Below, one piece after another: positions 40,886-60,531 of a stretch of 64,000 nucleotides of DNA. The notes under the pieces are model-generated. The model saw only the letters and a list, made by a program, of their open reading frames with translations. It ran no database searches and was not told where the DNA came from. The first letter of the stretch is position 1. Each line of letters opens with the position of its first letter. This DNA comes from Myxococcales bacterium. Its GTDB lineage: Bacteria; Myxococcota_A; Polyangia; Polyangiales; DASUME01. The DNA is taken from NCBI GenBank assembly GCA_047601445.1, contig JASGJH010000001.1:8224001-8288000 (forward strand), given 5' to 3'. The translations under genes were made by a program, and so were the position numbers.

Positions 40886-40980
40886 GGGGCCCTAACTCTT
40901 CCACGACATGGATATCAGACTGCGGCTCGCGAATGACCGGCGTGTTGTGGAGGTCATCGTTGGTCAGCAGGACGCGCGCC

Positions 40981-43179
40981 CTAACGAAAGGTCTCCGTCC
41001 AGATTCGCCCCGGCGTCCAGTGGACGAGCCGGCTCCCTGCCACGACGGTGTCCTTGCCGGGCGTCGATGATTGGAAGACGATGCTGCCGTCGCTGTTCGA
41101 ACGAACGGCGCCGCTGGTGGGGTCGAAGAAGAGGCCGTCGCCCGCTGCACGCATCGGTGCAATGGGGACGAGCTCGGACAGCGCCAATGGGCGCCCGGCC
41201 ACACTCGCGCTCGCCAACACGAGTAGGTATAGGAAGCTAGGCGACGGTCGCATGCCCTGCGTGCCGATGATGGGCTGTGATCCGAGCCAGCCCAAGAACC
41301 ACTGGCCCTGAGGCACGAGCGGTTCGCCGGCGTGGCTGGTGAACACGCCGAGTCCATTTTCGAGGTTGAACGCGATGTCCCAGCCGTCGGGTGAGATACC
41401 CTGGAACGCGTCAGGAGCAGAAACGTTGGCACCAACCGCGGGGCAGGTATCGGGCACGCTGAAGCGCTCTGCGCCGGTGCCGAGGTCTTTTACCCGGGTC
41501 GAGCAATCGTGCTGGACCACGAGGCCATCGGCCGACATGAATCCCTCCGAGGCGTAGACAGCGGCGGCGGTTCCGTTCTTGGCGAGCTCGACGGCGCGGC
41601 CTGTAGGCAACAGGTCTGGCGGAAGCACTACACGCGTCAGATCTGGATGCGAAGGAGTGGGGAGCTTGTGCAGAACCCATTCGGCATCGACGTCGGTCGA
41701 CTCCAGGTGCAGCAGGGTAGCGCCATCTGCCGATAGTTGTGCCCCTGAGCCGCGCAGGCCGCCGAGGAGTTTGAAGCCGCTCGCGCTGGACTCGAGCACC
41801 CAGAGTTGCCCACCGTTCTCGCCGACCTCCACGACGAAGCGACCCGACTCGGAGCCCTCGATGGAGATGACGCGGCCGCAACCAAGTTCGAAGACCGGCG
41901 ACGGAAGCGAGGTGCTGCCGATGCGGATCGGACTGCCGCTCCGACCCATCATCGCCCAATTGCCCTCGAAGTCGTCCGTGAGTGTGGATGCGTTGATGGA
42001 CCACCCGTAGTCGGCGCTCACCGTCGCGCTTCGGGTCGGAGGACTCGTATGCATATCGTAGATCGTGAAGCCGACTCCCGGCTGGTTGCCCACCGCGAGG
42101 GTGAAGGTGCCCATGCCAACGGTTCCCCATGAATCGTTGTTCGCCTGAACGACAGGGTGGGTCTCGCCTACTGGAAACACCGACACCTGCTGGCCTTCTA
42201 GTGACTGATCGAGCGGACCGAGCTGGGTCAGGATCGGCTGGTTGATGGCGAAGGTGCTGCCCGACCCGATGAGGTCCACCGTTCCGTCGAGCTCGAAGGT
42301 CTGCGCAACGCTGCCGTCGGCGTTTACGATGCGGTACGTCGTGCCGTCGCGCGTGAAGAACTTCGCGGTGCCTTCGAACCACTTCACGAACTCGCCTGCG
42401 AACTCTGGTGAAACGGAGCTCTCGTCGCCCGCGGCCCGAATGAACTCGATGACGCGTTCGCCGGCCGGCCCGTGTGCGACATAGGCGCCTTCCGCGCCCG
42501 CGATGACGTGCGCATTGCTGTAGTCCCCTGCACGCGTCCACAGTCGCGCGCCATCACTGGTGCGCCATGCGAACAGGCCCGCCGTCGTTGCTGCCCACAC
42601 CCACGAGCCGTCGAGTGCAATCTGCGCCGGGGCCACGATCATCAGTAGCCCGTTCGGGGTCACGGCTTCCGCAGGAGCCTGGTCCGAGGACTCGAGCACC
42701 ACGAGCAAGCTGTCGTCCACAGCACTGCGAAGTTCCAATTGGGAGGAGGCGTTTCTCACGAGGATCATGGAGCGGCTCATGTCGAGCGCTCTCGAGCCAA
42801 CCTCACGCGCTACGATGCTGCGTGTCGTCGTATCCCAAAGAATCCAGGCCGGAGCGAAGTATGGGTCCGTAGTGGCTTGGAGGACGCGATCTCCGGAGCG
42901 TCTCAGCAGCCGGTCGTCGTCGGGATACTCGTTGAGGCCATCTTGAATGATCGGTTCTTCGAAGGTGCCAACGCCGAGAGGCTGGCCGCAGAGAGTCCCA
43001 TTCAGAGCCTCGACCCAAGCGTCGCTCTCTTCGCGAAGCGCCATCTCGCCATTCGGACCTGGCCCGCCATCGCGGTCACGTTCGCGCTCGGGGAGCTCCG
43101 AGCTGTCGGATCCACAGGCAGTGAGAGCCAGCGTCGTGCCCCCAATCATCGAAACGAGAGCAATCATGTTCGCGCGCAT
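40981..43179 (-). CDS. Lipoprotein, predicted beta-propeller-rich; paralog 2
   Basis: MRANMIAL...LALTAC lipobox; shares long blocks with paralog 1 (MILVRNASSQLELR, WVWAATTAGLFAWRTSDGA, GISPDGWDIAFN). Confidence 0.75.
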   Translation of the reverse strand: MRANMIALVSMIGGTTLALTACGSDSSELPERERDRDGGPGPNGEMALREESDAWVEALNGTLCGQPLGVGTFEEPIIQDGLNEYPDDDRLLRRSGDRVLQATTDPYFAPAWILWDTTTRSIVAREVGSRALDMSRSMILVRNASSQLELRSAVDDSLLVVLESSDQAPAEAVTPNGLLMIVAPAQIALDGSWVWAATTAGLFAWRTSDGARLWTRAGDYSNAHVIAGAEGAYVAHGPAGERVIEFIRAAGDESSVSPEFAGEFVKWFEGTAKFFTRDGTTYRIVNADGSVAQTFELDGTVDLIGSGSTFAINQPILTQLGPLDQSLEGQQVSVFPVGETHPVVQANNDSWGTVGMGTFTLAVGNQPGVGFTIYDMHTSPPTRSATVSADYGWSINASTLTDDFEGNWAMMGRSGSPIRIGSTSLPSPVFELGCGRVISIEGSESGRFVVEVGENGGQLWVLESSASGFKLLGGLRGSGAQLSADGATLLHLESTDVDAEWVLHKLPTPSHPDLTRVVLPPDLLPTGRAVELAKNGTAAAVYASEGFMSADGLVVQHDCSTRVKDLGTGAERFSVPDTCPAVGANVSAPDAFQGISPDGWDIAFNLENGLGVFTSHAGEPLVPQGQWFLGWLGSQPIIGTQGMRPSPSFLYLLVLASASVAGRPLALSELVPIAPMRAAGDGLFFDPTSGAVRSNSDGSIVFQSSTPGKDTVVAGSRLVHWTPGRIWTETFR

Positions 43180-43453
43180 GGGGCCCCCACGGGAGCAAGC
43201 GATGGGCCAACGTCGGGGTGAAGCTCGTGCTCCCAAAGCGCACTGGAGAACCCTCGCAAATTGGGCTTTCTGCGCGTGAAACAAGCGGGTGACCTACGCG
43301 CGGCCGCAATCGAAGCTTGGGCGCGGGAACGCTCGTCGGAGAGGACGCGCAGCATTCCTCCATGACATGGATGTCAGGGCTCGTTGCGACGTGGTGCTCG
43401 AACGCCTGAGTAGCTCGTGGCGTCCGTCCGATGATGACGCGTGGGAGCAAAAG

Positions 43454-47819: not shown

Positions 47820-47835
47820 CGGCACGACTCCTGCT
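47820..47835 (+). promoter_or_regulatory. Candidate sigma-54 promoter for the peptide array
   Basis: CGGCACGACTCCTGCT versus consensus TGGCACG-N4-TTGCW with exact GG-N10-GC spacing; 85 nt upstream of the first peptide ATG, in a ~440 nt non-coding region. Confidence 0.6.
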
Positions 47836-47920
47836 CAAGCACCCCGCAGCTAGTCTGACCAGACGACGTTGCTGGAACCAATCAGCTAGCCGAATCCAAA
47901 CAAAAACAGGGGAAACAATC

Positions 47921-48121
47921 ATGAAGAAGCAGATCCAGTTCGTGTCGGTTGAAGAAGCTGCCCTTGAGTCCGTGGCCGGTGGCCTGTTGGACATCCTCAA
48001 TGGCTCGCTGAACTGCAACACCATCAACGTGCTCAGCGGCATCACGCTGAACACCAAGGTCGGTGACGTGGCCAGCGACATCCTCAACATCGGCAACGAG
48101 TACTGCCAGAAGTGGTGCTGA
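47921..48121 (+). CDS. Double-glycine leader precursor peptide 1 (66 aa)
   Basis: MKKQIQFVSVEEAALESVAGG | LLDILNGSLNCNTINVLSGITLNTKVGDVASDILNIGNEYCQKWC; RBS ACAGGGGAAA. Confidence 0.9.
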   Translation: MKKQIQFVSVEEAALESVAGGLLDILNGSLNCNTINVLSGITLNTKVGDVASDILNIGNEYCQKWC

Positions 48122-48194
48122 ATCGTGTCTCGCCGGGCAATCGGCGAGCTCGTTTGTTGCCCGCTCTGAAACACAGAAAAACAGGGGAAAAATC

Positions 48195-48386
48195 ATGAAG
48201 AATGAAATGTTCGTTTCGGTGGATGAGAAGGCTCTCGAGACCGTCGCTGGCGGCTTGCTCGACATCCTGAATGGCTCGCTCAACGGCAACACCATCAACG
48301 TGCTCAGCGGCATCTGCGCGAACACCGAGGTGGGCGACGTTCTCAGCCACATCCTCAACATCGGCAACGAGTACGGCTGCTGGTGA
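48195..48386 (+). CDS. Double-glycine leader precursor peptide 2 (63 aa)
   Basis: MKNEMFVSVDEKALETVAGG | LLDILNGSLNGNTINVLSGICANTEVGDVLSHILNIGNEYGCW; RBS ACAGGGGAAA. Confidence 0.9.
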   Translation: MKNEMFVSVDEKALETVAGGLLDILNGSLNGNTINVLSGICANTEVGDVLSHILNIGNEYGCW

Positions 48387-48487
48387 TCGCTCTCGCTCGC
48401 CGGTTCGCCGGCGAGCCCAGGTTTTTCTCGATTCCGTACAAGTCGATTCGCTACGCAACGCTCAAGCAACAACAGGGGAAATCACAA

Positions 48488-48676
48488 ATGAAGAAGCAAG
48501 AAATGTTCGTGTCGGTCGAAGAGATGGCGCTCGAGTCCGTGGCCGGTGGCCTCCTCGACATCGCCAATGGCGCGCTGAACCACAACAACATCAACGTCCT
48601 CAGCGGTCTGAGCCTCAACACCTGCGTTGGCGACGTGCTCAGCCACATCCTCAACATCGGTAACGAGGTCGGCTGA
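48488..48676 (+). CDS. Double-glycine leader precursor peptide 3 (62 aa)
   Basis: MKKQEMFVSVEEMALESVAGG | LLDIANGALNHNNINVLSGLSLNTCVGDVLSHILNIGNEVG; RBS ACAGGGGAAA. Confidence 0.9.
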   Translation: MKKQEMFVSVEEMALESVAGGLLDIANGALNHNNINVLSGLSLNTCVGDVLSHILNIGNEVG

Positions 48677-48769
48677 TCTCGCCACTCGGCCGGGCCGCTG
48701 CCGGCGAGACCGTTTCGATTCGATCCAAGTCAAATAGCGTTTCAGCACAATAAAACAGGGGAAATCACC

Positions 48770-48958
48770 ATGAAGAACCAGGAAATGTTCGTGTCCGTCG
48801 AAGAGAAGTCGCTTGAGTCCGTGGCCGGTGGCCTGCTCGACATCGCCAATGGCGCCGTCAACGGCAACTGCATCAACGTTGCCAGCTTCATCACCGCCAA
48901 CACCTGCGTCGGCGACGTGCTGAGCCACATCCTCAACATCGGTAACGAGGTCGGTTGA
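48770..48958 (+). CDS. Double-glycine leader precursor peptide 4 (62 aa)
   Basis: MKNQEMFVSVEEKSLESVAGG | LLDIANGAVNGNCINVASFITANTCVGDVLSHILNIGNEVG; RBS ACAGGGGAAA. Confidence 0.9.
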   Translation: MKNQEMFVSVEEKSLESVAGGLLDIANGAVNGNCINVASFITANTCVGDVLSHILNIGNEVG

Positions 48959-49171
48959 TCTCGCACCGCCGGCGCTGCCGGCGGAGGCCTTCGCGTCGCG
49001 CGAACCATCCCAAGTCACGAGATCCCGTGGCGTGGGCGCGCGCGGCGCTGCCGTGCTCGTCACGGCTTGCCCGATGGGGATAGAAGGCCGGTCGGCCCAT
49101 GCGATCGGGACTCCATCGGACACTTAGAGATACGCGAAAGTAATTGCAAAGATCACTACAGGGGGAACACC

Positions 49172-49363
49172 ATGAAGAACCAGGAAATGTTCGTTTCGGT
49201 TGACGAGAAGGCTCTTGAGAGCGTCGCGGGCGGACTGCTCGACATCCTCAACGGCGCGCTGAACGGCAACACGATCAACCTGCTCAGCGGCATCGAGCTG
49301 AACACGGCGATCGGCGACGTCCTCAGCAACATCGGCAACATCGGCAACGAGCTCTGCCTCTGA
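49172..49363 (+). CDS. Double-glycine leader precursor peptide 5 (63 aa)
   Basis: MKNQEMFVSVDEKALESVAGG | LLDILNGALNGNTINLLSGIELNTAIGDVLSNIGNIGNELCL; RBS ACAGGGGGAA. Confidence 0.9.
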   Translation: MKNQEMFVSVDEKALESVAGGLLDILNGALNGNTINLLSGIELNTAIGDVLSNIGNIGNELCL

Positions 49364-49371
49364 TACCCGGC

Positions 49372-49417
49372 TGACGTGCAGCAGGCTCGGGGGGGCCTGC
49401 TGCACGTCACCACTTTT
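49372..49417 (+). terminator. Strong stem-loop/terminator between the peptide array and export genes
   Basis: Perfect 15-bp stem TGACGTGCAGCAGGC / GCCTGCTGCACGTCA followed by CCACTTTT. Confidence 0.75.
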
Positions 49418-49547
49418 GGTCTTCACTTCGCGGTTTCTTGTGCCGCGTTTCTCGCACCATGTACCGATACCGAGGCCACGTGCCGTCGCGCTCCCAAGCG
49501 ACCGAGCCTGAGCCGCCCAACAGTTTCCGCAGCGGGAGATTCCTGCC

Positions 49548-50468
49548 ATGTCTGATCGTCTGACGTTTGGGCTAGCCAGCATTCCCATGTTTACCGGCGT
49601 CCTCTTGGTAGGGCTCCTGCAGCGTCCGCCGTCGGTGGAGCTCGACGACGCGCAGAGCGCGCGCAGAGGCACCGCCGCCGTCAACAGCGTCCCGACCGTG
49701 AAGCCCACCGTCGGCGTGGTCACGGCGGGGCAGACCGCGGACCTCAGCGCCGGCTTCGAGGGAAAGGTCACGGAGATCTTCCTCCAGACCGGTACGCGCG
49801 TGAGAGCCGGACAGCCGCTGCTCGAGATCGATCCCAGCATCGCCAAGATCAGTGTGGACCTCGCGAAGGCGGAGCTCGGTCAGCGCAAGTCCGAGGCCCA
49901 GCGCGCCAAGGCGCGGCTCGAGGAGGCTCGCGGAAAGTTCGCGCGCTACACGGCGGGCGCAACCTGGCTTGCCGAGCAAGACGTCGCGTCCGCCAAGTCC
50001 GCCATGCACATGGCGCAGGCCGACCTGAACGCAGCGTACGCAGCCGTGGACATGGTGAAGGCCAAGCTCAAGCAACAGAAGATCTACTCGGAGCGTCACA
50101 AGCTGGTGGCTCCCATCGCTGGGACCGTGATCATTTCCGACGTCGGACCGGGCGACAGCGTCACTTCTGGCCAAGTGCTGGCCCGCGTTGTGAGCGATGA
50201 TCGGGAGGTGCGGTTCGCGCTGCCCCGCGAGTCGTTGCCTGCTTCGTCCCCGGACAAGTTCGAGGTGCTCGTGCAATCGAAGGCTGACAACAGTCAGGTG
50301 CGCGCTCCGGTGTCGAGCGTCAAACCCGAGATCGATCCGGCGGCGCAGCTGGTGTTCGCCACCGCGAGCCTGCCCGCCGAGCAGGTCGGCTCGCTCGCGT
50401 TCATGCCGGGCACGAAGGTCACCGTGGAGCCCATCCTGCCCACGGGGCCCAGCCTGGAGAGCAGGTGA
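49548..50468 (+). CDS. Membrane fusion protein (periplasmic adaptor, RND/HlyD type)
   Basis: LSAGFEGKVTEIFLQTGTRVRAGQPLLEID and LVAPIAGTV...GDSVTSGQVL lipoyl halves around a coiled-coil hairpin. Confidence 0.88.
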   Translation: MSDRLTFGLASIPMFTGVLLVGLLQRPPSVELDDAQSARRGTAAVNSVPTVKPTVGVVTAGQTADLSAGFEGKVTEIFLQTGTRVRAGQPLLEIDPSIAKISVDLAKAELGQRKSEAQRAKARLEEARGKFARYTAGATWLAEQDVASAKSAMHMAQADLNAAYAAVDMVKAKLKQQKIYSERHKLVAPIAGTVIISDVGPGDSVTSGQVLARVVSDDREVRFALPRESLPASSPDKFEVLVQSKADNSQVRAPVSSVKPEIDPAAQLVFATASLPAEQVGSLAFMPGTKVTVEPILPTGPSLESR

Positions 50469-50471
50469 GCC

Positions 50472-51416
50472 ATGGCGCAAGCGCCGCTGTTTCGCCGTGA
50501 GGCCATCGAGCACCAAGCCAAGCGTCACGCCTCGCGCGCCGAGGTCCTGAACATCGGCCCGGCGTCGGTGGAGTGGGGCTTTCGCTTTGCCTGCGTGGTG
50601 ATCACGGTGGCGCTGGCGTTCGTGATCTTGGGGCGCCTCAATGAGTACGCTACCGGACCCGCGCTGGTGCGCCTCGACGGACGCATCCCGATGACGGCCT
50701 CGCACGCGGCGCTGGTGACTCACGTGGAGGTCGCTCCGGGCGACGTGGTGAACCAGGGCGACGTGCTGGTGCGCTTCTACGCCAACGCGGAGACCGCCGA
50801 GCTCGAGGCCGCTTCGCGGGAGTTCGATGACCAACTGCTCAAGCTCCTGCAGCGCCCGGACGACGCGGTGGCCAAGGAATCGCTCGTCTCGCTGCGCACG
50901 CGCAAGGAGCTCGCCAAGAATCGGCTCGAGCAGCTCACTCTGCGCGCGCCACAGCGCGCCATCGTGGGCGACGTTCGGGTACGACCGGGCCAGCTCGTGG
51001 AGCCCGGGATGTCGGCGCTCGAGCTGGTGGACACGCAGGCCAAGGGCGTGGTCATCGCGCTCCTACCAGGGCGCTATCGGCCGATGATCAAGAAGGGCGA
51101 GAGGCTGCGCTTCGAGCTCGATGGCTTTCAGCGCCGCACCCACGAGCTGAAGTTGAGCCACGTGGGCGATCAGATCATCGGTCCCGCCGAAGCCGCCCGC
51201 TATCTGGGCCAGGACCTGGCGGGCGCCTTCGCCATCGCGGGGCCCGTGGTGGTGGTCCAGGCGGAGTTGCCGAAGAACACCTTCGAGGTGGATGGCGAGA
51301 GCTTCAAGTTCGCACAGGGCACCCCTGGCAAGGCCGAGACCGTCGTGCGCTCCGAGCCGATTGCCTACGCCTTCATTCCGGCTCTCAAACAGTGGGTGGA
51401 ACGTGTCTGGAAATAA
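50472..51416 (+). CDS. HlyD-family secretion adaptor
   Basis: N-terminal LFRREAI, one TM, VAPGDVVNQGDVL and LRAPQRAIVGDV...PGQLVEPG motifs. Confidence 0.88.
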   Translation: MAQAPLFRREAIEHQAKRHASRAEVLNIGPASVEWGFRFACVVITVALAFVILGRLNEYATGPALVRLDGRIPMTASHAALVTHVEVAPGDVVNQGDVLVRFYANAETAELEAASREFDDQLLKLLQRPDDAVAKESLVSLRTRKELAKNRLEQLTLRAPQRAIVGDVRVRPGQLVEPGMSALELVDTQAKGVVIALLPGRYRPMIKKGERLRFELDGFQRRTHELKLSHVGDQIIGPAEAARYLGQDLAGAFAIAGPVVVVQAELPKNTFEVDGESFKFAQGTPGKAETVVRSEPIAYAFIPALKQWVERVWK

Positions 51417-53760
51417 TCCTGTCGATGCGCGCGGGCCCAACAACCCGAACCCCAATCCGCCGAAGGCTGCGGGCGACACGAGTGCAGCCAAGCCGGTCAA
51501 GCCCAAGACCAAGCGCGAGGTCCCCTTCGTCGCGCAGCTCACGCCCACCGACTGCGGTGCGGCCAGCTTGAGCGCCGTGCTCTCGTACTACGGCAAGGAG
51601 ATCCCCATCCACGCGGTGCGCACCAGCCTAGGCGGCGGACGCAACGGCGTGACGGCGCGACAACTGCTCACGGCGGCGCGGCAGTTCGGCCTACGCGCCC
51701 GCGCGGTGAACGTGGAGCTCGACAAGCTTCCGTTCTTGCCGCCTGCCAGCATCTTGCACTGGGACCTGAATCACTTCGTGGTCTTCGAGAAGGCCAACAA
51801 GAAGGGCGTCGTGATCGTGGACCCCGGCATGGGCCGGCGCGTGCTCAAGATGGAGGACGTCTCGAAGTCGCTCAGCGGCGTGGGTCTCTTGCTCGAGCCC
51901 GGCGAGGGCTTCGACCAGGTGGCCGGCGAGAAGCGCAGCCGCTTTGGTCGCTACGCCAACTGGATCCTGGGGCACCGCGGTATCTGGCAACGCTTGCTGC
52001 TGACCTCGATGTTCCTGCAGCTGATCGCGCTGTCCGTGCCCGGCTTGATGGGCGCCTTGGTGGACAAGGTAGTCCCGCGAGCGGACGTGGATCTGTTGTC
52101 GCTGGTGAGCGCGGGCTTCCTGAGTATCGGTGCCTTCTACTTTCTGACCACCTTCCTGCGCACCCGGCTGTTGCTACACCTGCGCACCAAGGTGGAAGCC
52201 AGCATGTCGATGGACTTCGTGGAGCACCTGCTGGCGCTGCCCTACACGTTCTTCCAGCAACGAACCACGGGCGACCTGATGATGCGCCTGAGCAGCCAGA
52301 CGGCGATCCGCGAGATCCTCACCTCGGGTGCGCTCTCCGCCATGCTCGACGGCGCGATGGTCACCGTGTACCTGGTGCTGCTGGTGGGCGCGGCGCCGAT
52401 CTTGGCCCTGGTGGCGCTCGGCATCGTCGCGGTGCAAGTGGCGATCTACCTGGTGGCGGGGCGCCGCAACGCAGCCTTGATGGTGGAGTCGCTGGCGGCC
52501 CAGGCGCGGCTCGAGGGGTATCAGGTGGAGATGCTCGCGGGCATCGAGACGCTCAAGTCGATGGGGGCCGCCGACCGCGCTCAAACGCGCTGGAGCGACC
52601 TCTACGTGATCTCGCTCAACAACACGGTGAAGCGAGGAGAGCTCGACGGCATGTTCAGCGCGCTGATCGGCGTGCTGCGCTTTTGCGGTCCCATCTCGTT
52701 GATGCTCACCGGGGCGCATCTGGTGCTCGTCGGCGAGCTGTCCCTCGGCACCATGCTCGGATTGTCGGCGCTCGGCGCGGGCTTCCTCGAGCCCGTGGCC
52801 AATCTGGTGAACACGGGCATGAAGCTCGCTCAGCTCAAGGGCTACATGGAGCGCATCGAAGACGTGCTCGACACGCCCACCGAGCCCAAGCCCGCCCAGG
52901 GCAGCGCACCGGTGACGCGTCTGGTGGGCTCCATCAAGGTCGATGGCCTGGCCTTCGCGTACCCGAGTGAGCCGCGCCCCACGCTCCAGGGCATCACGCT
53001 GGAGATTCAGCCGGGAGAACGCGTGGCCATCGTGGGGGCGTCCGGTTCGGGCAAGTCCACACTGGCGCGCCTGTTGGCCGGGCTATACGAGCCAGGCGCG
53101 GGCAACATCTCCTACGACGACGTGAATGTGAAGAGCTGGGATCTCAATCAGCTGCGCGAGCGTCTGGGCATCGTGACCCAGGACACGCGGCTTTTCTCGG
53201 GCACCATTCGCGACAACCTGACGCTGTTCGATCCCGCCGTGCCGCAGGATGACGTGGAGCGCTCGGTGCGCCTGGCCGCGCTGGATCTCGACATCGCGCG
53301 CATGCCGATGGGCTACGACACGGTGCTGGCTGACGGCGGGAGCTCGCTCTCGGGTGGGCAGCGCCAGCGTGTGTCCCTGGCGCGCGCGCTCCTGCGTCGA
53401 CCGACCATCCTGGTGCTCGACGAGGCCACCAGTGCGCTCGACACCGTGACCGAGGCCCTGGTGCAGGAGCGACTCAAGGAGCTCAAGTGCACGCAGGTCA
53501 TCGTGGCGCATCGACTGAGCACGGTGATGCACGCGGACAAGATCGTGGTGCTCGATCAGGGCCGCATGATCGCGGTGGGCAATCACGACGAGCTCATGCG
53601 GCGCAGCCGCGAGTACCAGTACCTGGTACGGGCCCAGCAGAATGCTCGCCCCGAGGCCGTTCCGCCGGTCACTTCCGACGCCATGACCACCAAGCTCGCG
53701 ATGCCCGAGCCCGGGGCGTCGCAGGAAGAAGTGCTGCCCACGCGTGTGCTGCAACGCTGA
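51403..53760 (+). CDS. Peptidase C39-containing ABC transporter (PCAT)
   Basis: VPFVAQLTPTDCGAASL (Gln/Cys), ILHWDLNHFVV (His), IVDPG (Asp); ABC membrane domain; GASGSGKST, LSGGQRQR, LVLDEATSALD, VAHRLST. GTG start at 51403 inferred. Confidence 0.95.
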   Translation: MSGNNPVDARGPNNPNPNPPKAAGDTSAAKPVKPKTKREVPFVAQLTPTDCGAASLSAVLSYYGKEIPIHAVRTSLGGGRNGVTARQLLTAARQFGLRARAVNVELDKLPFLPPASILHWDLNHFVVFEKANKKGVVIVDPGMGRRVLKMEDVSKSLSGVGLLLEPGEGFDQVAGEKRSRFGRYANWILGHRGIWQRLLLTSMFLQLIALSVPGLMGALVDKVVPRADVDLLSLVSAGFLSIGAFYFLTTFLRTRLLLHLRTKVEASMSMDFVEHLLALPYTFFQQRTTGDLMMRLSSQTAIREILTSGALSAMLDGAMVTVYLVLLVGAAPILALVALGIVAVQVAIYLVAGRRNAALMVESLAAQARLEGYQVEMLAGIETLKSMGAADRAQTRWSDLYVISLNNTVKRGELDGMFSALIGVLRFCGPISLMLTGAHLVLVGELSLGTMLGLSALGAGFLEPVANLVNTGMKLAQLKGYMERIEDVLDTPTEPKPAQGSAPVTRLVGSIKVDGLAFAYPSEPRPTLQGITLEIQPGERVAIVGASGSGKSTLARLLAGLYEPGAGNISYDDVNVKSWDLNQLRERLGIVTQDTRLFSGTIRDNLTLFDPAVPQDDVERSVRLAALDLDIARMPMGYDTVLADGGSSLSGGQRQRVSLARALLRRPTILVLDEATSALDTVTEALVQERLKELKCTQVIVAHRLSTVMHADKIVVLDQGRMIAVGNHDELMRRSREYQYLVRAQQNARPEAVPPVTSDAMTTKLAMPEPGASQEEVLPTRVLQR

Positions 53761-53898
53761 ATTGGCAAGCAGATATCGTTGTGTCTTCGAAAGGCTGCTT
53801 TCAGCGCGTGGTCCAGCTAACTCCTGAATGGCTGCGCTGTCTTTGCTGTGCCTCCTTTTGCTCTCCATGTCAGTCGAGGTGGTTTTAGGCTCGTCGCC

Positions 53899-54366
53899 AT
53901 GCTCAATGCTTATGCTTGGTTTCGGTCGGCCTGCCTCGCCACTTGCGTGCTCGGCCTCGGTGCTTGCGCGCAGCCGCCCCGCGGGCCCGCGGGTGATGGT
54001 TCGGACTTGTCGTCCAGCGAAGGCGACGGTGATGGCGACGGCGACGGCGACTCCAGCGATGGCCCGTCATCCAGCGGCGATGGCGACGGCGACGGCGACT
54101 ACTGGCACAGTGGCGACGGCGACGGCGATACCAGCGGCGAATTCGGATCCGTCGACGGTGGCGCAGGCGGCAACCCGCTGGGGGGGCTCGGCGGCCTCTT
54201 CGGTGGCGGCGGCGCGTCCGACGCGGGCACCCAGCCCACGGGCGACGCGGGCGACTGCGTGAGCAGCCCGCGCGTCTGCTGGGACGTGTTCGACTGCTAC
54301 ATCTTCCACCCCGGCGACCTCGGCTGCGGCTACACGCGCTGCGACGGCTTCGTCTGCAAGCCGTGA
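53899..54366 (+). CDS. Lipoprotein with GD-repeat linker and small Cys-rich C-terminal domain
   Basis: LGLGAC lipobox, GDGDGDGD tracts, C-terminal six-Cys motif. Confidence 0.7.
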   Translation: MLNAYAWFRSACLATCVLGLGACAQPPRGPAGDGSDLSSSEGDGDGDGDGDSSDGPSSSGDGDGDGDYWHSGDGDGDTSGEFGSVDGGAGGNPLGGLGGLFGGGGASDAGTQPTGDAGDCVSSPRVCWDVFDCYIFHPGDLGCGYTRCDGFVCKP

Positions 54367-54379
54367 CCGTTCGCTTTTC

Positions 54380-54460
54380 GGGGAGGTCACGCGACTTCCC
54401 CGCCCGTGGAAGCAAAGCTGCGACGGGACCCACCCCAGCGCGAGGTTCGCTGCGCTCACG
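54380..54460 (+). repeat. Structured intergenic repeat, copy D (full)
   Basis: GGGGAGGTCACGCGACTTCCCCGCCCGTGGAAGCAAAGCTGCGACGGGACCCACCCCAGCGCGAGGTTCGCTGCGCTCACG. Confidence 0.85.
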
Positions 54461-54495
54461 GGTGCGCCTTCAGCGCCATGGAGGCCCCGCGCAGG

Positions 54496-55680
54496 TCAAC
54501 GCTGCGGCGATAGCTTGCGCAGCTTGAGCTGCGCTTCGTCCGCGAAGCGTCCCTTGGGATAGCGGGCCAAGTAGGTCTCGAGCAGGCTCTTCTCTCGTGC
54601 GGGGGCCGCGCGTGGAGCGAGCTGCGCGGCCGCAAAGGCGGCGTTCTCGCCTGCACTCAGGTCGCGGTAGCGCTTGGCGAGGCTTTCATATTGCTTGAGC
54701 GCGCTGGGCAAGTCCTGCTCGAGTAGTGCGATCTCCGCGCGCAGCGTGGCGGCTTCGGCCTGCTCCGGACGCTCGAGTTTCGTGCGCGCGAGGCTGTCGA
54801 GGAGCTTGGTCGCGGCCACGGTCTGTCCCTTGGTCAGGGCTTTACGGGTCTGCGTCAGGATCTGGCGTGCGTTGAGGGCAGGCTCCTCGGAACGTGCCTG
54901 GTTCGCTGCACGCGTGTCGCTGCGCGTTTCAGTCGGGTTGAAGGTGAACGTCGAGCCTGCCGCCAGGTCCCGCGCCAACACCTTGCCCTGCGGGTCGAAG
55001 ATCTGCACGTGCCCCTCGCGCACGCTGACTTCGTCCGGTGTCACGCTGAACTGCGTGCCCAGCACCTGCACGCGGAAGTTCTTGGTGTGCACCCAGAACG
55101 GCGCCCTTGGCGCGGGATCCACGTCGATGTCAACGTGGCCACGCTCGAGCGTCAGCACCGCGCTCTGCGCGTCGAACTGCAGCCTGGAGTCGGCGGCCGC
55201 GTCGACGCGAGCGTGCGCGAACTGCAGCGAGCGCGCCTGATCGATCTCGAGCCAGGTGCCGACCGGGTCGCTCGGGGTCGCTGCCGTGTGGTGGGCCTGC
55301 GGAGCCGCGACCGGTAGCACCGGTTTGGTGGCTACGGGCTCGCTGCGCGTGCCGAACCAAATCACAAGCCCCGCGGCGGCCGCCGCGCTCACTAGACCGA
55401 GCGTGGCCAGCGTGCGACCCGGACCCGGACGCAACGAGATCACACGGCGCTGCCCGGCACGCTCGAGCGCACGAGAGAGCGCACGCTCACGCGAGGACTC
55501 GCCGAGGGTGGGCGACACGCGCGCGAAGATTGCCTGCGAATCGCGGCTCAGGCTCAGCTCCGCGCGGCACTCGGAGCACCCTTGCAGGTGCTGCTCGAGC
55601 CGCAGTCGCGCGGCTGCGCTGAGCCCCTCGGGATCGACACCGATCAGTTCCTCGACATCGCGGCAGCTACTTCTATTCAT
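54496..55680 (-). CDS. FecR-domain anti-sigma factor (N-terminal zinc finger, C-terminal TPR)
   Basis: HLQGCSEC (HxxxCxxC), TM, VQVLGTQFSV and VSVREGHV FecR motifs, YLARYPKG TPR end. Confidence 0.85.
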   Translation of the reverse strand: MNRSSCRDVEELIGVDPEGLSAAARLRLEQHLQGCSECRAELSLSRDSQAIFARVSPTLGESSRERALSRALERAGQRRVISLRPGPGRTLATLGLVSAAAAAGLVIWFGTRSEPVATKPVLPVAAPQAHHTAATPSDPVGTWLEIDQARSLQFAHARVDAAADSRLQFDAQSAVLTLERGHVDIDVDPAPRAPFWVHTKNFRVQVLGTQFSVTPDEVSVREGHVQIFDPQGKVLARDLAAGSTFTFNPTETRSDTRAANQARSEEPALNARQILTQTRKALTKGQTVAATKLLDSLARTKLERPEQAEAATLRAEIALLEQDLPSALKQYESLAKRYRDLSAGENAAFAAAQLAPRAAPAREKSLLETYLARYPKGRFADEAQLKLRKLSPQR

Positions 55681-56296
55681 GTTCTGCCTCTCCGTACTCG
55701 GCGAGCCAATGACGGGCCTGAGGGTCCTTGCGCAGACGCGCGAAGAGCTTGCGGCGTGCCCACATCACGCGTGACTTGGTGGTGGAGAGATTGCTGTCCA
55801 TCAACGCCGCGACCTCTTCCATACTGTGGCCTTCGACCTGGAAAAGGATGAAAGCCATGTGATGTTTCGCATCCAGGCTCTCGAGATGTTCCCGCAACAG
55901 GGCAAGACGACGCTTGGCTTCGGTATCTTCGCTGGGAGATGGTTGGCCAGCTGTCAGTTGTCCGCCCTCGATGACCTCGAGCTCCGTCCGCCGCTTTTTC
56001 CAGGGGCTCTTCAAGTGGTGCAAAGCCGTGCGCACCGCGATGCGCGTGAGCCAGGTGCGGACCTTGGCCTCGCCCCGAAACTGGGGGAACGCCACGATGG
56101 CCTGCTCCAGGGTGAGCTGCAGCAGGTCCTCCAGGTCGGAGCGCGTGGACACGAAGCGCGATAGGACGCGTTCCACGAAGGGGCTCTCGGTGCGCAGGAC
56201 CTGCGCCAAGGCCGCACGCTCTCCCCGCCGGCAGCCCTCGATTACGGCGGGGCTGTAGACCTCGCTCTCTCGAATGGGCTTGGCGTCGGGCTTCAC
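55673..56296 (-). CDS. ECF RNA polymerase sigma factor
   Basis: EDLLQ, FRGEAKVRTWLTRIA (region 2), EGHSMEEVA...TTKSRV..AR (region 4). Confidence 0.9.
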   Translation of the reverse strand: MKPDAKPIRESEVYSPAVIEGCRRGERAALAQVLRTESPFVERVLSRFVSTRSDLEDLLQLTLEQAIVAFPQFRGEAKVRTWLTRIAVRTALHHLKSPWKKRRTELEVIEGGQLTAGQPSPSEDTEAKRRLALLREHLESLDAKHHMAFILFQVEGHSMEEVAALMDSNLSTTKSRVMWARRKLFARLRKDPQARHWLAEYGEAEHE

Positions 56297-56397
56297 AGGC
56301 TTCCTTAGTGGATCATCCTAGCCGTTTGGTTGAAGCCGAAAAAGAACCCGACGCCCCGGAGGAAGTGCCCAGTTTTCGGGAAGAAACGGGAACACTC

Positions 56398-56478
56398 CGT
56401 GAGCGTAGCGAACATCGCGGCGGGGTGGGTCCCGGCGCGGCTTTGCCGCGCCGGGCGGGGAGGGCGCGTGCCCTCCCC
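56398..56478 (-). repeat. Structured intergenic repeat, copy E (full, reverse orientation)
   Basis: Reverse complement GGGGAGGGCACGCGCCCTCCCCGCCCGGCGCGGCAAAGCCGCGCCGGGACCCACCCCGCCGCGATGTTCGCTACGCTCACG. Confidence 0.85.
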
Positions 56479-56519
56479 GTTACCTGACAAGTAAGCGATT
56501 GTTCGGCACAATCCCGGCC

Positions 56520-57626
56520 GTGCACAGGCGCCTCTTAACGCTCGTCCTGTGGCTTGCTTGGATGGGGGTTGCGCGCGCGCAGCCGGCACCGAGTGTGCTG
56601 CTCCTGGAACATCCCGGCCTCCGACCGGATCTGTGCGGCGCCTTGCGCATCCAGCTCAGCGGGTTGGCTCAGGTGCGTTGCGAGCGAGAGACCGCCGCGG
56701 TTGCCTTGCCTGCACGCATCGGCGCTGCGGCCGAGCGCGTACGGGGGGGCAAGGCGAAGCTCGGCGTGTTTCTGGAGCGCGATCCGGACCCTGGCTTCGT
56801 GCGCATGTACATCGTCGGTTCCGAAGGCGACCAGGCTGTGCTGGCGGTGGAGAAGATCGAGGATCGCCCGGACGCCGATGTGGATCGAAGCCTGGCCCTC
56901 GAGGTCGCTGCGGCCTTCGAGGCCGTGGCGCGGGTCGAAGCGGCACGCCAGGAGGGTCGCCCTGCGGAGGGAACGCCTGGCCCCGCGCCCACTCCGCTCG
57001 GTGGGGTGCTGGCGCCACCTGGGGCTCCCGCTCCCACGGTCAGAGCGGACCAAGCTCCCGCGGCCGGCGCCGGTCAGGAGGTATCCGCCAGGGAACACGG
57101 CTGGGCGCTATTCGTGGATGTCGGAGGTGGTTTCCGTGTGGACGCAGCCGTTCAGGGGCTGGTGAGCGCTGATCTCGGCTTTTCACGGGTGAGCGCGCGT
57201 ACGCGTCTCGACCTTGGCGTGGGCTTCGAGTTGGGTACCCGCTATCAGCGCAGCCAGGACCAGACCCAAGTGCACGCCTGGGAACGCGGACCCCAGGTGA
57301 CCGCGCGCCTCTTGCGTCGTTGGACCCGCATCGAGCTCGGCGGCGAGCTGGTCATTGGGTGTCCGCTGCTTTCCGCCGAAGGGATCGCCCGCGACGGAAC
57401 GCGCGGCGAGAAGCTCTTGGCATTGCCCTCGCTGGGATTCGGCCTCGATTTTCGAGTGCGGCTGGTGTCGACTGCGTTCTTGCGCTTGAGCCCACGCCTG
57501 GATGTGCCGTTGGTGCACCAGAGTCTCGAGGTGGACGACGTGCAGGTGATGGATTTCCCGCCGCTCGGCGTCACGGTGCCCCTCTCGCTGATCTTCTATC
57601 TCCCGCTCCAGGCGGGGGGAACGTAG
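56520..57626 (+). CDS. Secreted protein with periplasmic domain, Pro-rich linker and probable C-terminal beta-barrel
   Basis: Signal peptide ending ARA-Q, P/A-rich linker, amphipathic beta-strands. Confidence 0.6.
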   Translation: MHRRLLTLVLWLAWMGVARAQPAPSVLLLEHPGLRPDLCGALRIQLSGLAQVRCERETAAVALPARIGAAAERVRGGKAKLGVFLERDPDPGFVRMYIVGSEGDQAVLAVEKIEDRPDADVDRSLALEVAAAFEAVARVEAARQEGRPAEGTPGPAPTPLGGVLAPPGAPAPTVRADQAPAAGAGQEVSAREHGWALFVDVGGGFRVDAAVQGLVSADLGFSRVSARTRLDLGVGFELGTRYQRSQDQTQVHAWERGPQVTARLLRRWTRIELGGELVIGCPLLSAEGIARDGTRGEKLLALPSLGFGLDFRVRLVSTAFLRLSPRLDVPLVHQSLEVDDVQVMDFPPLGVTVPLSLIFYLPLQAGGT

Positions 57627-57635
57627 GATGGAACG

Positions 57636-58442
57636 ATGACTCGCCTCGAGTCTGCACGGCTGCTTTTGATCGCGCTCTGCCTGACGCAGGCCTGCGATCG
57701 CAACACGTTGCTCGCGCGCTCGCACTCCCAGCCCAGCGAAGCGGGTGCGGACGCAGGTCACGAGGATGGAGGCATCCCCACGGACGGCGGGTTCTCCATC
57801 TCGGACGCGGGCGTAGCGATGTGCGGCAAGCTGGTTTGTGCCTGCTCGAACGGAAAAGACGACGACAAGGATGGCCTGACGGATGGCCTGGACGGCGAGT
57901 GCACCGGCGCTTTCGACAATGACGAGGCGAGCTTCGGTACCGGGCGCGAACGCAATCCCAACGCGCGCTGCTTGAACTGCTTTTTCGACGACAACCCGGG
58001 CGCCGGCAACGACGGCTGTCGCATTGCGGCAAGCTGCGCCGTGAACGGTGTAGCTCAGGGGGCTCCGGGGTCGTGCAACACCTGCGAGCCCACGTTGGAA
58101 TGCACCGACCGCTGCCTGTCGCGCACGCCCAACGGCTGTGACTGCTTCGGTTGCTGCGGCGTGCATCTCGACGATGGCAGCGTGGTCAACGTGATGTTGA
58201 GCGCCGAGTGCATGATCAAGGGCAGCAAGCTGAGCGGCTGCCAGTCCTGCGTGCAAAACGAGAGTTGCCTGAATCGCTGCGGGACCTGCGAGCTGTGCCC
58301 GGGTAAGACCGAGTCCGAGTTACCCGCCGAGTGCCGCAACCAGGGCGGGGTCACCTGTGAAGGCGGCCCGGTGTGCTCGACGAACACTCCCTGTGACCTG
58401 GGTCAGTACTGCGGTCTCGGCTGTTGTCTCGACGTGCTCTGA
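57636..58442 (+). CDS. Cys-rich lipoprotein (paralog of 58501..59577)
   Basis: LTQAC lipobox; about 30 Cys; [34 protein letters not shown]. Confidence 0.8.
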   Translation: MTRLESARLLLIALCLTQACDRNTLLARSHSQPSEAGADAGHEDGGIPTDGGFSISDAGVAMCGKLVCACSNGKDDDKDGLTDGLDGECTGAFDNDEASFGTGRERNPNARCLNCFFDDNPGAGNDGCRIAASCAVNGVAQGAPGSCNTCEPTLECTDRCLSRTPNGCDCFGCCGVHLDDGSVVNVMLSAECMIKGSKLSGCQSCVQNESCLNRCGTCELCPGKTESELPAECRNQGGVTCEGGPVCSTNTPCDLGQYCGLGCCLDVL

Positions 58443-58445
58443 GCC

Positions 58446-58487
58446 AAAGAAAAAGGGCCGCCCCTGGAGGGAGCGGCCCATTCGTTT
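58446..58487. terminator. Probable bidirectional terminator between convergent genes
   Basis: AAAGAAAAA-GGGCCGC...GCGGCCC-ATTCGTTT. Confidence 0.65.
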
Positions 58488-58500
58488 ACGCCAGCGTCGA

Positions 58501-59577
58501 TCAGAAGAGGATGACCGGCGTCAGCACGCAGCAGCCGAATGTGCAGGCATAGTCCGCACCGCAGTCCGGCAGGCCGGTGCCGCACAGGGCTTCGCCGTTA
58601 TCGCAGGTGTACGAGGGGGGCGGCGGGGGTGGAGGCGGCGGCGGATTCGTGGTGCCGCCGTCGGGCGAGCCAACCGGGGGCGTGCCAGCGTCGGGCTGGC
58701 TGGCGGGAGGAGGAGGTGTGCAATCGGCCGGCAGGTCGGCGACCGTCTTGCCCGGGCACAGCTCGCAGCGGCCGCACGTGTTGACACAGCTGTCGTTGGG
58801 CACGCACTCCGTGCAGCCCGTGGTCGTGCTGCCTTCGATGTCGCAACCACCGCCGATCAGGATGTTCTTCGTCGAGCCGTCTGGCAGCTTCACGCCGCAG
58901 CAGCCGAAGCAGTCGCAGCCGTTGGGCGTATAGGCCTTGCAGAAGTTCTTGCACATGTCGGTCTGCTCGCAGCTGCTGCAGCTGCCGTGACCACTCGAGG
59001 CGTTGCCCTCGGTCAAGCAGCTGGTGGGCAGGCGGCAGCCATCGTTGCCGGAGCCGGAGTTGCCGTCGAAGAAGCAGTCCTGGCAGGCGTCGTCGCGGTT
59101 GTCGCCCGGCTGGCCTGTCGCGAACGAATCCTCGTCGTTGTCCCAGGCAGCCACGCACTCGGGGTCGGCGAGGTCGCCGCGCCCATCGCCGTCGTTGTCC
59201 TTGCCGTCGGAGCACTGGCAGACGACGTCGCCACACATGAACGGCGTGACGGTCGGGACAGGCGCAGTCGGGGTGCCCGTGCCGGAATCGCCCGTGGGGG
59301 TCGTCGGTAGCGGCTGGTCCACAGTGCCATTGCCGTCGGTGTCCACACCGTCGGAGATTCCGTCGCCGTTGGTGTCGACCGCGGTGCCGTCTGGAATGCC
59401 GTCTCCGTTGAGATCGACCCCCGTGCCCGGCGGCGGCAGCATGCCCTCGCTCTGTGAGCCATCGAGGCTGGCGTCGAGGTCGCCGCCGTCCATTAGCCTA
59501 CCGCCACTTCCACCATCGCCACTGCAGGCAGACAGCACCAACATTGCCGCGACTACCCACTGTGTGTTCTTTGCCAT
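58501..59577 (-). CDS. Cys-rich lipoprotein with DxNGDG Ca-binding repeats and Pro-rich linkers
   Basis: VLSAC lipobox; DLNGDG/DTNGDG/DTDGNG; same Cys scaffold as 57636..58442. Confidence 0.8.
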
Positions 59578-59703
59578 CCCGCGCTCCTGTTGAGGACTCG
59601 AGTGGCTATCGTGGCCCTGGGGAGCCTGTCGGTTGAAACGCGATCTCCAGCAGGGCCATTTTTTTCTTCAACTGGAGCCTGCCGGGCTGCCACCGTAGGC
59701 GCC

Positions 59704-60531
59704 ATGAATCAGAAAGAACTCGCAATTTCCACGATGGTTCTCGCCCTGGGTGCGCTTGGTTGCAGCAGCGACACCACCGCCCGACAGGGGGCGCTTCCGT
59801 GGGACGATGGCCACACCCAGGTCGTGGGTCCGAACGGGGAGGTTGTCGACGTGGCGACGCCCGAAGGCGATGGCTGCCTCAAGGTGGGCGAGGAGTTCGC
59901 CGACCCGGCCAACTGCATCAAGCCCCAGGACGAGTGCGAGAGCCGCGCGGCCGACGTGCTGCTCGATACCGATGGCAAGGTGCTCGATACCCTGTGCTAC
60001 CCCGCCGAAGGCACCATCTCGGTGGCGCAGCTGGAAGCTTCGGACGGCGGGGTCGCGCAGAACCAGAACAACTCGGTGATTGTGCTCGATTCGAACCCAG
60101 ACGTGGATGTGGCCGGGGACCTGAGCGTCGACGCCAACAACGTATACATCTACGGCGACAGCCCCGACACCTCCGTGGTCGATGGTGACCTCACGCTCGA
60201 CGGCAACAATGCCGTGGTGCGTGGCGTGCGCATCACGGGCGACGTCACGGTGGTAAAGAACGACGCCACCTTCTTTTACTGTGTGATCGAGGGCAACCTG
60301 ACGATCACTGGCAACAACACGGTGATCGCGGGCTGCGACGTGCTGGGCACGCTGACGATCATGGGTAACAACAGCAAGCTGGTCGGCAATCACCTGGTGC
60401 ATGCCCCCGAGATCGACGGCAAGGGCACGCAGTGCGACGCCAACTTGTCGGCGGAGGACAAGGACCAGAGCGGCACGCTCGAGGACAGCGAGCTCGGCGC
60501 GCCCATCCAGTGCGGCGAGAAGGGCAAGTGA
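59704..60531 (+). CDS. Lipoprotein with beta-helix-like repeats
   Basis: ALGC lipobox; repeated (V/I)xG(D/N)LT(I/L)xGNN motifs. Confidence 0.75.
   Translation: MNQKELAISTMVLALGALGCSSDTTARQGALPWDDGHTQVVGPNGEVVDVATPEGDGCLKVGEEFADPANCIKPQDECESRAADVLLDTDGKVLDTLCYPAEGTISVAQLEASDGGVAQNQNNSVIVLDSNPDVDVAGDLSVDANNVYIYGDSPDTSVVDGDLTLDGNNAVVRGVRITGDVTVVKNDATFFYCVIEGNLTITGNNTVIAGCDVLGTLTIMGNNSKLVGNHLVHAPEIDGKGTQCDANLSAEDKDQSGTLEDSELGAPIQCGEKGK

Follow-up and report, generated by a model that had tools for sequence, protein, structure and literature searches.

A five-peptide array and its export operon

The stretch of DNA considered here (the window, 64,000 nucleotides) is part of the genome of a Myxococcales bacterium of the class Polyangia, which is available as a single contig of 9.5 Mb with a GC content of 66% (G000). 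It contains five tandem genes for small peptides with a double-glycine (GG) leader, followed by genes for two membrane fusion proteins (MFPs) and a peptidase-containing ATP-binding cassette transporter (PCAT) (Table 1). This array, its paralogues and the probable role of the exported peptides are the subject of this report.

Table 1. Positions of the peptide genes, export genes and regulatory elements in the window
Feature	Position	Strand	Remarks
Sigma54-type -24/-12 motif	47820-47835	+	CGGCAC-N5-CTGCT; 101 nt before the first ATG; putative function
Precursor 1	47921-48121	+	66 aa; GG leader and 45-aa core with Cys/Trp tail
Intergenic hairpin after gene 1	48129-48148	+	z -1.5; weak
Precursor 2	48195-48386	+	63 aa
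Intergenic hairpin and T run after gene 2	48395-48416	+	z -2.1
Precursor 3	48488-48676	+	62 aa
Precursor 4	48770-48958	+	62 aa
Precursor 5	49172-49363	+	63 aa; last-position subtype, also in L029
Long hairpin with T-rich tail	49369-49420	+	gap between peptide and transporter genes; -52.6 kcal/mol, z -6.7
MFP 1 (RND/HlyD type)	49548-50468	+	306 aa; TIGR01730 above cut-off
MFP 2 (short HlyD type)	50472-51416	+	314 aa; Pfam/NCBIfam
PCAT	51403-53760	+	785 aa from GTG; Cys51, His124, Asp140

The five tandem open reading frames (ORFs) of 62-66 amino acids with a shared GG leader were found where an earlier, sequence-only reading of the window had placed them. Each is preceded by a ribosome-binding site, CAGGGG, and all encode the leader F-V-S-V-(E/D)-E-x-x-L-E-(S/T)-V-A-G-G; 36 of the 67 columns are invariant in an alignment of the five peptides. 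The cores had been considered to be as conserved as the leaders, but their pairwise identity is slightly lower (69-85% vs. 75-94%). Every aligned member of the wider family carries the GG leader L-E-[ST]-V-[AS]-G-G, and in Pfam the leaders gave weak matches only, to Bacteriocin_IIc/ComC leaders. The array is real and not a chance assembly of ORFs, because a hidden Markov model (HMM) gave E-values of 1e-24 to 1e-39 in the genome and because the same gene order, i.e., an OmpA gene, five peptide genes, two MFP genes and the PCAT gene, is found in a second genome of the genus (G004). Precursor 1 represents a first-position subtype that is also present in loci L026 and L028, and both the first- and the last-position subtypes are kept across strains in a tree in which 6 of 26 branches are well supported.

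Pfam and NCBIfam searches and motif inspection agree with the earlier assignment of two MFPs and a C39-type transporter with intact Cys, His and Asp. The PCAT contains the domains Peptidase_C39, ABC_membrane and ABC_tran, and its Walker A, signature and Walker B motifs are intact as well. Its best NCBIfam match is TIGR03796, an NHLP-type exporter, at 619 bits, which is below the cut-off of 853 for that model. Translation probably starts at the GTG at 51403 and not at the ATG at 51292. PCATs cleave their substrates after the GG motif and work with an MFP and a TolC-type channel to move the core across both membranes. The parts of such a system are all present, i.e., the GG leader, an adjoining C39-ABC transporter with MFPs, and TolC-type channels in the genome, where PF02321 has 40 matches, none of them in the operon.

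An HMM of the five peptides detected three further tandem paralogues at 3.71 Mb in G000, 4.56 Mb away (array B). Since this second array has no transporter gene, the exporter, which had been called dedicated, does adjoin the array in the window but is not strictly dedicated to it. Judging from the orphan paralogues and from related leaders elsewhere, it probably serves cargo in trans. Homologues of MFP 2 are found in 99 of 401 genomes of the class, a count that takes in one genome flagged as unpublished (G702), and in 8 of 10 genomes of the genus. The MFP 2 gene adjoins a PCAT gene in 38 of 40 fetched loci. Among these 40, a clear GG-leader gene lies beside the operon in G004, G006 and G007 (of a beta-meander type, see below), three others have a GG-leader gene nearby with an unrelated core, and most have no GG-leader gene matching the pattern used. 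Thus, the distribution of the exporter is far broader than that of the Asn-rich cargo.

A narrow peptide family

Eight paralogues are present in G000 and seven in G004, where two single peptide genes lie outside the five-peptide array; the arrays comprise three to five genes, and five metagenome loci supply additional ones. Of the 1434 candidates of a word-indexed search, 59 proteins qualified, and these belong to a single family; HMMER searches against 1.84 billion representative proteins gave five clusters at E <= 0.001 and none more distant. The family is absent from 400 other genomes of the phylum except for two leader-only matches, and from 400 genomes of the class except for two matches at chance level. 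A scan of genome contigs returned two loci, both from one record, and searches of plasmids and PHROGs returned no matches. Candidate members were rejected in G295, where the matches are restricted to the leader and the cores are Met-rich, and in G544, where the match lies in an antisense frame; a weak match in G565 sits inside a frame of 1375 codons. Only one longer protein containing the core was found, a mis-started member, although this is a weak test.

No Pfam, NCBIfam or PDB family scored above cut-off for the peptides, and the PDB sequence matches that were obtained (GCN4 fusions and cyclodextrin glucanotransferase) are at chance level. A Foldseek search with a low-confidence model of the core gave no match. 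The HMM search that the sequence-only reading had proposed, with inspection of the gene neighborhoods, thus uncovered a narrow family with no tailoring enzyme beside any array.

Composition and pattern of the cores

The cores of the window peptides are 41-45 residues long and net acidic, with 33-40% Leu, Ile and Val. As had been noted earlier, they lack Pro, and Lys is confined to core 1; their Asn content, previously put at about 20%, is 15.6-19.5%, and each of them contains one to three Cys, a point that had been missed. In the family cores, Asn amounts to 17.9%, compared with 2.6% in the proteins of the genome, Pro to 0.1%, and 64 of 65 cores are net negative. The number of Cys varies from zero to six, with no fixed column, and the C-terminal tails, of 0-17 residues, are freely variable.

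Within this composition a fixed pattern is discernible. All 64 ungapped cores (of 65) have N6, N12, S18, G27, S31, N35 and N38 in common, and L1, D3, N10, I14, D28 and I33 are nearly invariant. The motif [DN][IV][LAG][NS] begins at core positions 3, 15 and 28, so that three imperfect repeats result, each 12-13 residues long. The same motif is found three to five times in 66 of 67 cores. Residues 18-27 are the sole segment with a beta-like hydrophobic periodicity. The maximum of a 19-residue Kyte-Doolittle window reaches 1.6 in just 5 of 67 cores, so a classical membrane helix is not present, and in 57 of 67 the longest stretch free of N, D, E, K, R, Q and H does not exceed seven residues. The glycine zipper G-x3-G-x3-G occurs in 7 and the motif GAV in 5 of the 67 cores.

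A codon model allowing for base bias gave an omega of 0.11 for the leaders and of 0.20 at the 18 most variable core columns. With moderate confidence, these values suggest purifying selection on the cores, with no sign of an arms race.

Promoter motif and hairpins

A sigma54-type motif, which resembles the consensus TGGCACG-N4-TTGCW (PMC7910581), lies 85-121 nt before the first gene in all seven arrays or single genes with upstream DNA, which are kin and not independent cases, and before none of 23 other listed genes, three of which have short upstream DNA. The pattern is found in 8.3% of random 330-nt windows of the genome. An exact 14-mer is common to both arrays of G000 and occurs only these two times in the genome.

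The long hairpin between the peptide and transporter genes was not on the list of a simple terminator scan. None of 200 shuffled sequences was equally stable, and the hairpin is kept in three loci, with 4 of its 19 pairs changed on both sides (covariation). It is likely a terminator or attenuator, or else a stem that stabilizes the mRNA. It separates the two groups of genes, and the peptide message is presumably made in excess of the transporter message.

Tailoring and immunity genes

The absence of tailoring and immunity genes beside the array, on which the sequence-only reading relied, held up when 73 neighboring proteins were scanned and 10 array regions were checked. No enzyme for peptides that are ribosomally synthesized and modified post-translationally (RiPPs) is encoded among these neighbors. 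A methyltransferase gene lies 14 kb upstream of the array, with unrelated genes in between. Searches for LanC and LanB found none, a weak negative, as the positive controls remained silent too. A YcaO-TfuA pair is located 195 kb away (L120, G000:C1:8467290-8469883) with no evident precursor beside it; TfuA was found in 2 of 10 genomes of the genus and not in G004, which is 97% complete and carries the peptide family. Given this lack of co-occurrence, the pair was rejected as a partner. A general search gave 27 radical SAM matches in the genome, the nearest 44 kb from the array. Pfam and NCBIfam detected no NHLP or Nif11 leader on the peptides, and, of the residues that could be modified, Cys is not conserved, whilst S18, S31 and five Asn are invariant.

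A gene that follows array B (L001:7278-8600) encodes a multi-pass membrane protein, in which four His motifs are spaced out. This protein is common in the genus and has no match in Pfam, NCBIfam or PHROGs. It was rejected as a partner as well, as its gene is present in five of nine other genomes of the genus, which lack the peptide family, and was not found in G004. Array B is inserted at a site that is present in G007 too but empty there.

Verified microcin immunity genes are small, adjoining and membrane-bound (PMC12219008, PMC13188072). No conserved small membrane ORF (same strand, at least 30 residues, hydrophobic maximum of 1.6) was detected beside the arrays in the 10 regions. One ORF (49376-49555) was considered as a hidden immunity gene and rejected, as it runs through the long hairpin and is not kept in L022 or L029.

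What the exported peptides may form

The reading that we prefer, and to which we give about an even chance, is that the cores are made in bulk, exported by the PCAT without modification, and assemble by themselves into a polymer of the cell surface or matrix, as do EbfG1-4 of Synechococcus elongatus or MccAB1 of Acinetobacter baumannii, which are discussed below. In the corresponding scenario, sigma54 and an enhancer-binding protein would switch on the array in the window and the orphan arrays together, and the hairpin would raise the level of peptide mRNA above that of transporter mRNA. As is known for this family of transporters, the PCAT would cut after the GG motif, and the unmodified cores of 41-45 residues would leave the cell via an MFP and a TolC-type channel whose gene lies elsewhere; the orphan paralogues would use the same PCAT in trans. 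Outside the cell, the cores might co-assemble into a mixed polymer, in which the invariant Asn, Ser and Asp residues would line up in register as polar ladders or stripes from one stacked core to the next, with the hydrophobic positions packed inside and the variable positions and Cys-containing tails facing outward. If formed, the polymer may be either cross-beta or helical.

Several observations point in this direction, i.e., the gene dosage, the sigma54-type motifs, the conserved hairpin, the invariant pattern of the cores and the purifying selection on them, as well as the lack of a membrane helix, of a kept small membrane ORF and of a tailoring enzyme. A relaxed form of the EbfG hotspot in part of the cores (see below) and the published precedents, EbfG1-4 and MccAB1 (PMC4997328, PMC9981879, PMC13188072), also favor it. 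Besides, the core encoded in a sister PCAT operon has a strict alternating beta-strand pattern (see below). Structural self-assembly, as had been proposed for this locus, is the likeliest reading at the level of prediction; a cross-beta structure is hypothetical, and both core ends are helical in periodicity.

Other observations weigh against polymer formation. The hydrophobic moment peaks at 100 degrees in core residues 1-11 (0.41) and 26-40 (0.53), i.e., at helical periodicity, and AlphaFold monomers are helical as well, albeit with a confidence too low to be trusted (pLDDT of 54 and 64). With simple counting, dN/dS was 0.53-0.63 for the cores and 0.11-0.13 for the leaders, and two of the four codon-model runs, those on the whole core and on the conserved columns, were unoptimized and had to be discarded. 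The peptides have no homology to chaplins, rodlins, the CTB family or a solved amyloid in Pfam, NCBIfam and PDB searches. A relaxed form of the EbfG hotspot (motif from PMC9981879), [AILVG][FILG]NI[GS], is present in 24 of 67 cores vs. 13 of 20000 background windows, but it was chosen after the sequences had been seen and the cores are kin; the strict form, A[FI]NI[GS], is present in none of the 67. Of 10 genomes of the genus, the source genome included, 2 carry the family, a patchiness that is unlike an essential coat. Furthermore, a high dosage under the control of sigma54 would be consistent with toxins too, as genes for natural products in Myxococcus are driven by sigma54 (PMC7910581), and microcin immunity genes have been overlooked in the past (PMC13188072).

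The alternative that survives best, although we consider it doubtful, is that the peptides constitute a multi-component class II microcin or Cdz-like toxin, whose amphipathic helices would oligomerize in the membranes of prey or competitors. Perhaps, in a variant of this explanation, aggregates held at the surface serve contact killing, with immunity being intrinsic or encoded elsewhere. The host group is predatory, and the amphipathic periodicity of both core ends, the predicted helical models, the patchy distribution and the insertion of array B all suit such a function. The combination of GG leader, PCAT and MFP is the defining export set of microcins, and MccAB1 and CdzC each aggregate and kill (PMC13188072, PMC5380434). 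However, the arrays are unlike verified microcin loci in that they lack, in the 10 regions checked, an adjoining conserved small membrane protein (PMC12219008), stretches free of N, D, E, K, R, Q and H are short in most cores and zippers are rare, and the paralogues retain one core with no diversification. The sequence-only reading had also argued against a bacteriocin from the missing cationic charge. This argument is weak, because the criterion belongs to Gram-positive class II bacteriocins and because MccAB1 is both an amyloid and a toxin. By analogy with MccAB1, assembly and killing are in fact compatible.

It is improbable that the peptides are secreted signals or kin-recognition peptides, with the variable positions and tails as strain-specific messages and a receptor encoded elsewhere. 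Peptides with GG leaders that are exported by PCATs do include pheromones, and the weak ComC leader match, sigma54 control and the variation of these positions and tails between strains could be explained in this way; however, hydrophobic cores of 41-45 residues are long for a pheromone, the arrays do not keep a sensor kinase (one follows the PCAT gene in G004 and none is present in the window), and eight copies with a hairpin favoring bulk output suit a material more. Highly improbable is, finally, that the peptides are RiPP precursors tailored in trans, e.g., proteusin-like, with an Asn-rich core that is epimerized, thioamidated or methylated, since, although the PCAT resembles NHLP-type exporters and the genome offers the YcaO-TfuA pair, radical SAM proteins and the His-rich membrane protein, no enzyme lies beside any array, the TfuA and His-rich genes do not follow the family, a separate repeat ORF accompanies the sole RiPP-like radical SAM cluster, and neither a fixed Cys column nor an NHLP or Nif11 leader is present.

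Polymerization of the cores would extend microcin-type export for matrix, as in EbfG and MccAB1, to the Myxococcota and link it to sigma54, which governs development in myxobacteria, and it would provide a natural scaffold of 40 residues with at least 65 variants that map fixed vs. free positions. If they are toxins instead, they would add to the microcins a new family, of predatory origin and lacking a visible immunity gene. In both cases, the peptides are open to synthesis and testing without the uncultured host, and the reach is limited to the one genus in which the family was found.

Other cargoes and neighboring genes

A second MFP-MFP-PCAT operon is present in G000 (L004:9146-14077; 4.867-4.872 Mb), and its PCAT is 64% identical to that in the window. 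It is headed by a gene for a GG-leader peptide with a 43-residue core of four alternating hydrophobic/polar strands and a Phe-Gly end. Two more copies are encoded in trans (among the loci, L005:7278-7725), and the peptide, with 13 relatives, is also found in L079, L080 and L081. From its pattern, this core is a strong candidate for a beta-sheet polymer or a beta-barrel pore. Homology to the Asn-rich family was rejected, the hhalign probability being 0.3. A broader proposal would be that a Polyangia-wide clade of PCATs with a short MFP is a route for self-assembling coat peptides, with two unrelated cargoes in this genus, i.e., a sigma54-controlled heteropolymer of three-repeat Asn-ladder cores in a helical or beta-arch form and the four-strand beta-meander peptide. 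They would then represent the first amyloid-like structural coat in the biofilms or resting stages of myxobacteria, possibly with a new fiber architecture; taken as a whole, we think this proposal unlikely.

Additional GG-leader peptides were encountered. An orphan with the same leader type (L002:7531-7746) has a core that is rich in Gly and Leu and resembles a glycine zipper; a sigma54-type motif is present here as well, and the gene is divergent from that of a PIG-V-type mannosyltransferase; another (L003:7750-7956) has eight Cys in its core and no enzyme was seen alongside. G295, which belongs to another family of the same class, encodes GG-leader proteins in tandem, whose Met runs (of up to 10 residues) are followed by Gly-rich sequence (L031:1414-1881; L033:52-668 and 1225-1617). 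Near exporters of the same type, low-complexity cargoes are found in L115:5236-5607 (G450; a Gly/Tyr-rich core of 97 residues), L107:5503-5845 (G699; two short Pro-rich cores) and L111:3860-4159 (G411; an acidic core). Elsewhere in G000 (L119:6283-12080; 4.374-4.380 Mb), an ORF of 252 codons with six His/Tyr-containing repeats of 23 residues immediately precedes three radical SAM genes, two of which, from their length and motif, presumably encode B12-binding-like proteins; this has the appearance of a RiPP cluster with several cores and no GG leader.

In the window itself, the minus strand at 38759-43284 encodes two lipoprotein-like paralogues in tandem (708 and about 730 residues), neither with a Pfam match. 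A pair of an anti-sigma factor (FecR) and an extracytoplasmic function sigma factor lies at 53848-60531 amid several ORFs for Cys/Asp-rich lipoprotein-like proteins, also without a Pfam match; among these, directly 3' of the PCAT gene, is a gene for a GD-repeat protein.

Comparison with known systems

Chaplins and rodlins of Streptomyces and FapC of Pseudomonas contain short motifs rich in Asn, Gly, Val and Ile, and the resemblance of the cores to them is one of character only; moreover, these proteins are exported via Sec and have no GG leader. The kinship that the sequence-only reading suggested was not substantiated. The peptides did not match PF03777 (ChpA-C) or any amyloid family of Pfam or NCBIfam, and the only match of the rodlin model NF041022 in the genome (12.7 bits) lies elsewhere.

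The CTB family (NF038167, PF28158), a cyanobacterial annotation with no assigned function, also comprises tandem arrays of GG-leader peptides. NF038167 scored 13.6-17.2 bits, mostly over the leader, in five of the eight paralogues and not at all in three. A search of the genome gave no match, and neither did the cores alone (0 of 29). Atlas leads of 0.87 and 0.79 (<0.9) point to a cluster with 12% CTB members, and one family member carries a precomputed PF28158 entry. With scores far below the cut-off of 32 bits and cores without a match, membership was rejected.

CdzC and CdzD of Caulobacter crescentus are small, hydrophobic, type I-secreted proteins that aggregate on the surface of the producer (PMC5380434). 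They contain glycine zippers and are accompanied by the immunity protein CdzI, whereas Asn-periodic cores, infrequent zippers and no immunity gene are found here. The GG leader and export by a PCAT and MFP are shared with MccAB1, the amyloid fibers of which build biofilm (PMC13188072). MccAB1 is encoded by a single gene, contains GAV motifs and has an adjoining 56-residue immunity protein and a cupin (PMC13188072), in contrast to the arrays described here, in which GAV is rare and neither an immunity ORF nor a cupin is kept.

The reuse of bacteriocin-type export for a structural amyloid, which the sequence-only reading proposed, is already in print, as EbfG1-4 and MccAB1 were published as GG-leader/PCAT biofilm amyloids (PMC4997328, PMC9981879, PMC13188072). 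The Asn-rich family, its sigma54 control and a role in this host group were not found in open-access papers and preprints; the string "Myxo" is absent from the main text of PMC12219008, the supplementary hit tables of which, unsearched, could list these peptides.

Closest to the present system are EbfG1-4, four tandem GG-leader proteins that are exported by the PCAT PteB and needed for biofilm formation (PMC4997328, PMC9981879); EbfG1-3 form amyloid and contain a hotspot of the LAFNIG type (PMC9981879). Both systems consist of tandem small GG-leader genes and a C39 PCAT, with partly redundant paralogues, mature products of 6-7 kDa or smaller and no described tailoring of the core, and both contain a hydrophobic-hydrophobic-N-I-G hexamer, LAFNIG in EbfG and ILNIG in four of the five window cores. 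They differ in that two MFPs are encoded in the operon here, with a sigma54-type promoter and in a Myxococcota host, and in that amyloid formation and a role in biofilms were demonstrated for EbfG, whereas the present family is known from its genes alone. Judging from published descriptions and the shared motif, not from a sequence alignment, the family would work like EbfG1-4 in its logic; the kind of machinery was known already, whilst the peptide family and the host group are new.

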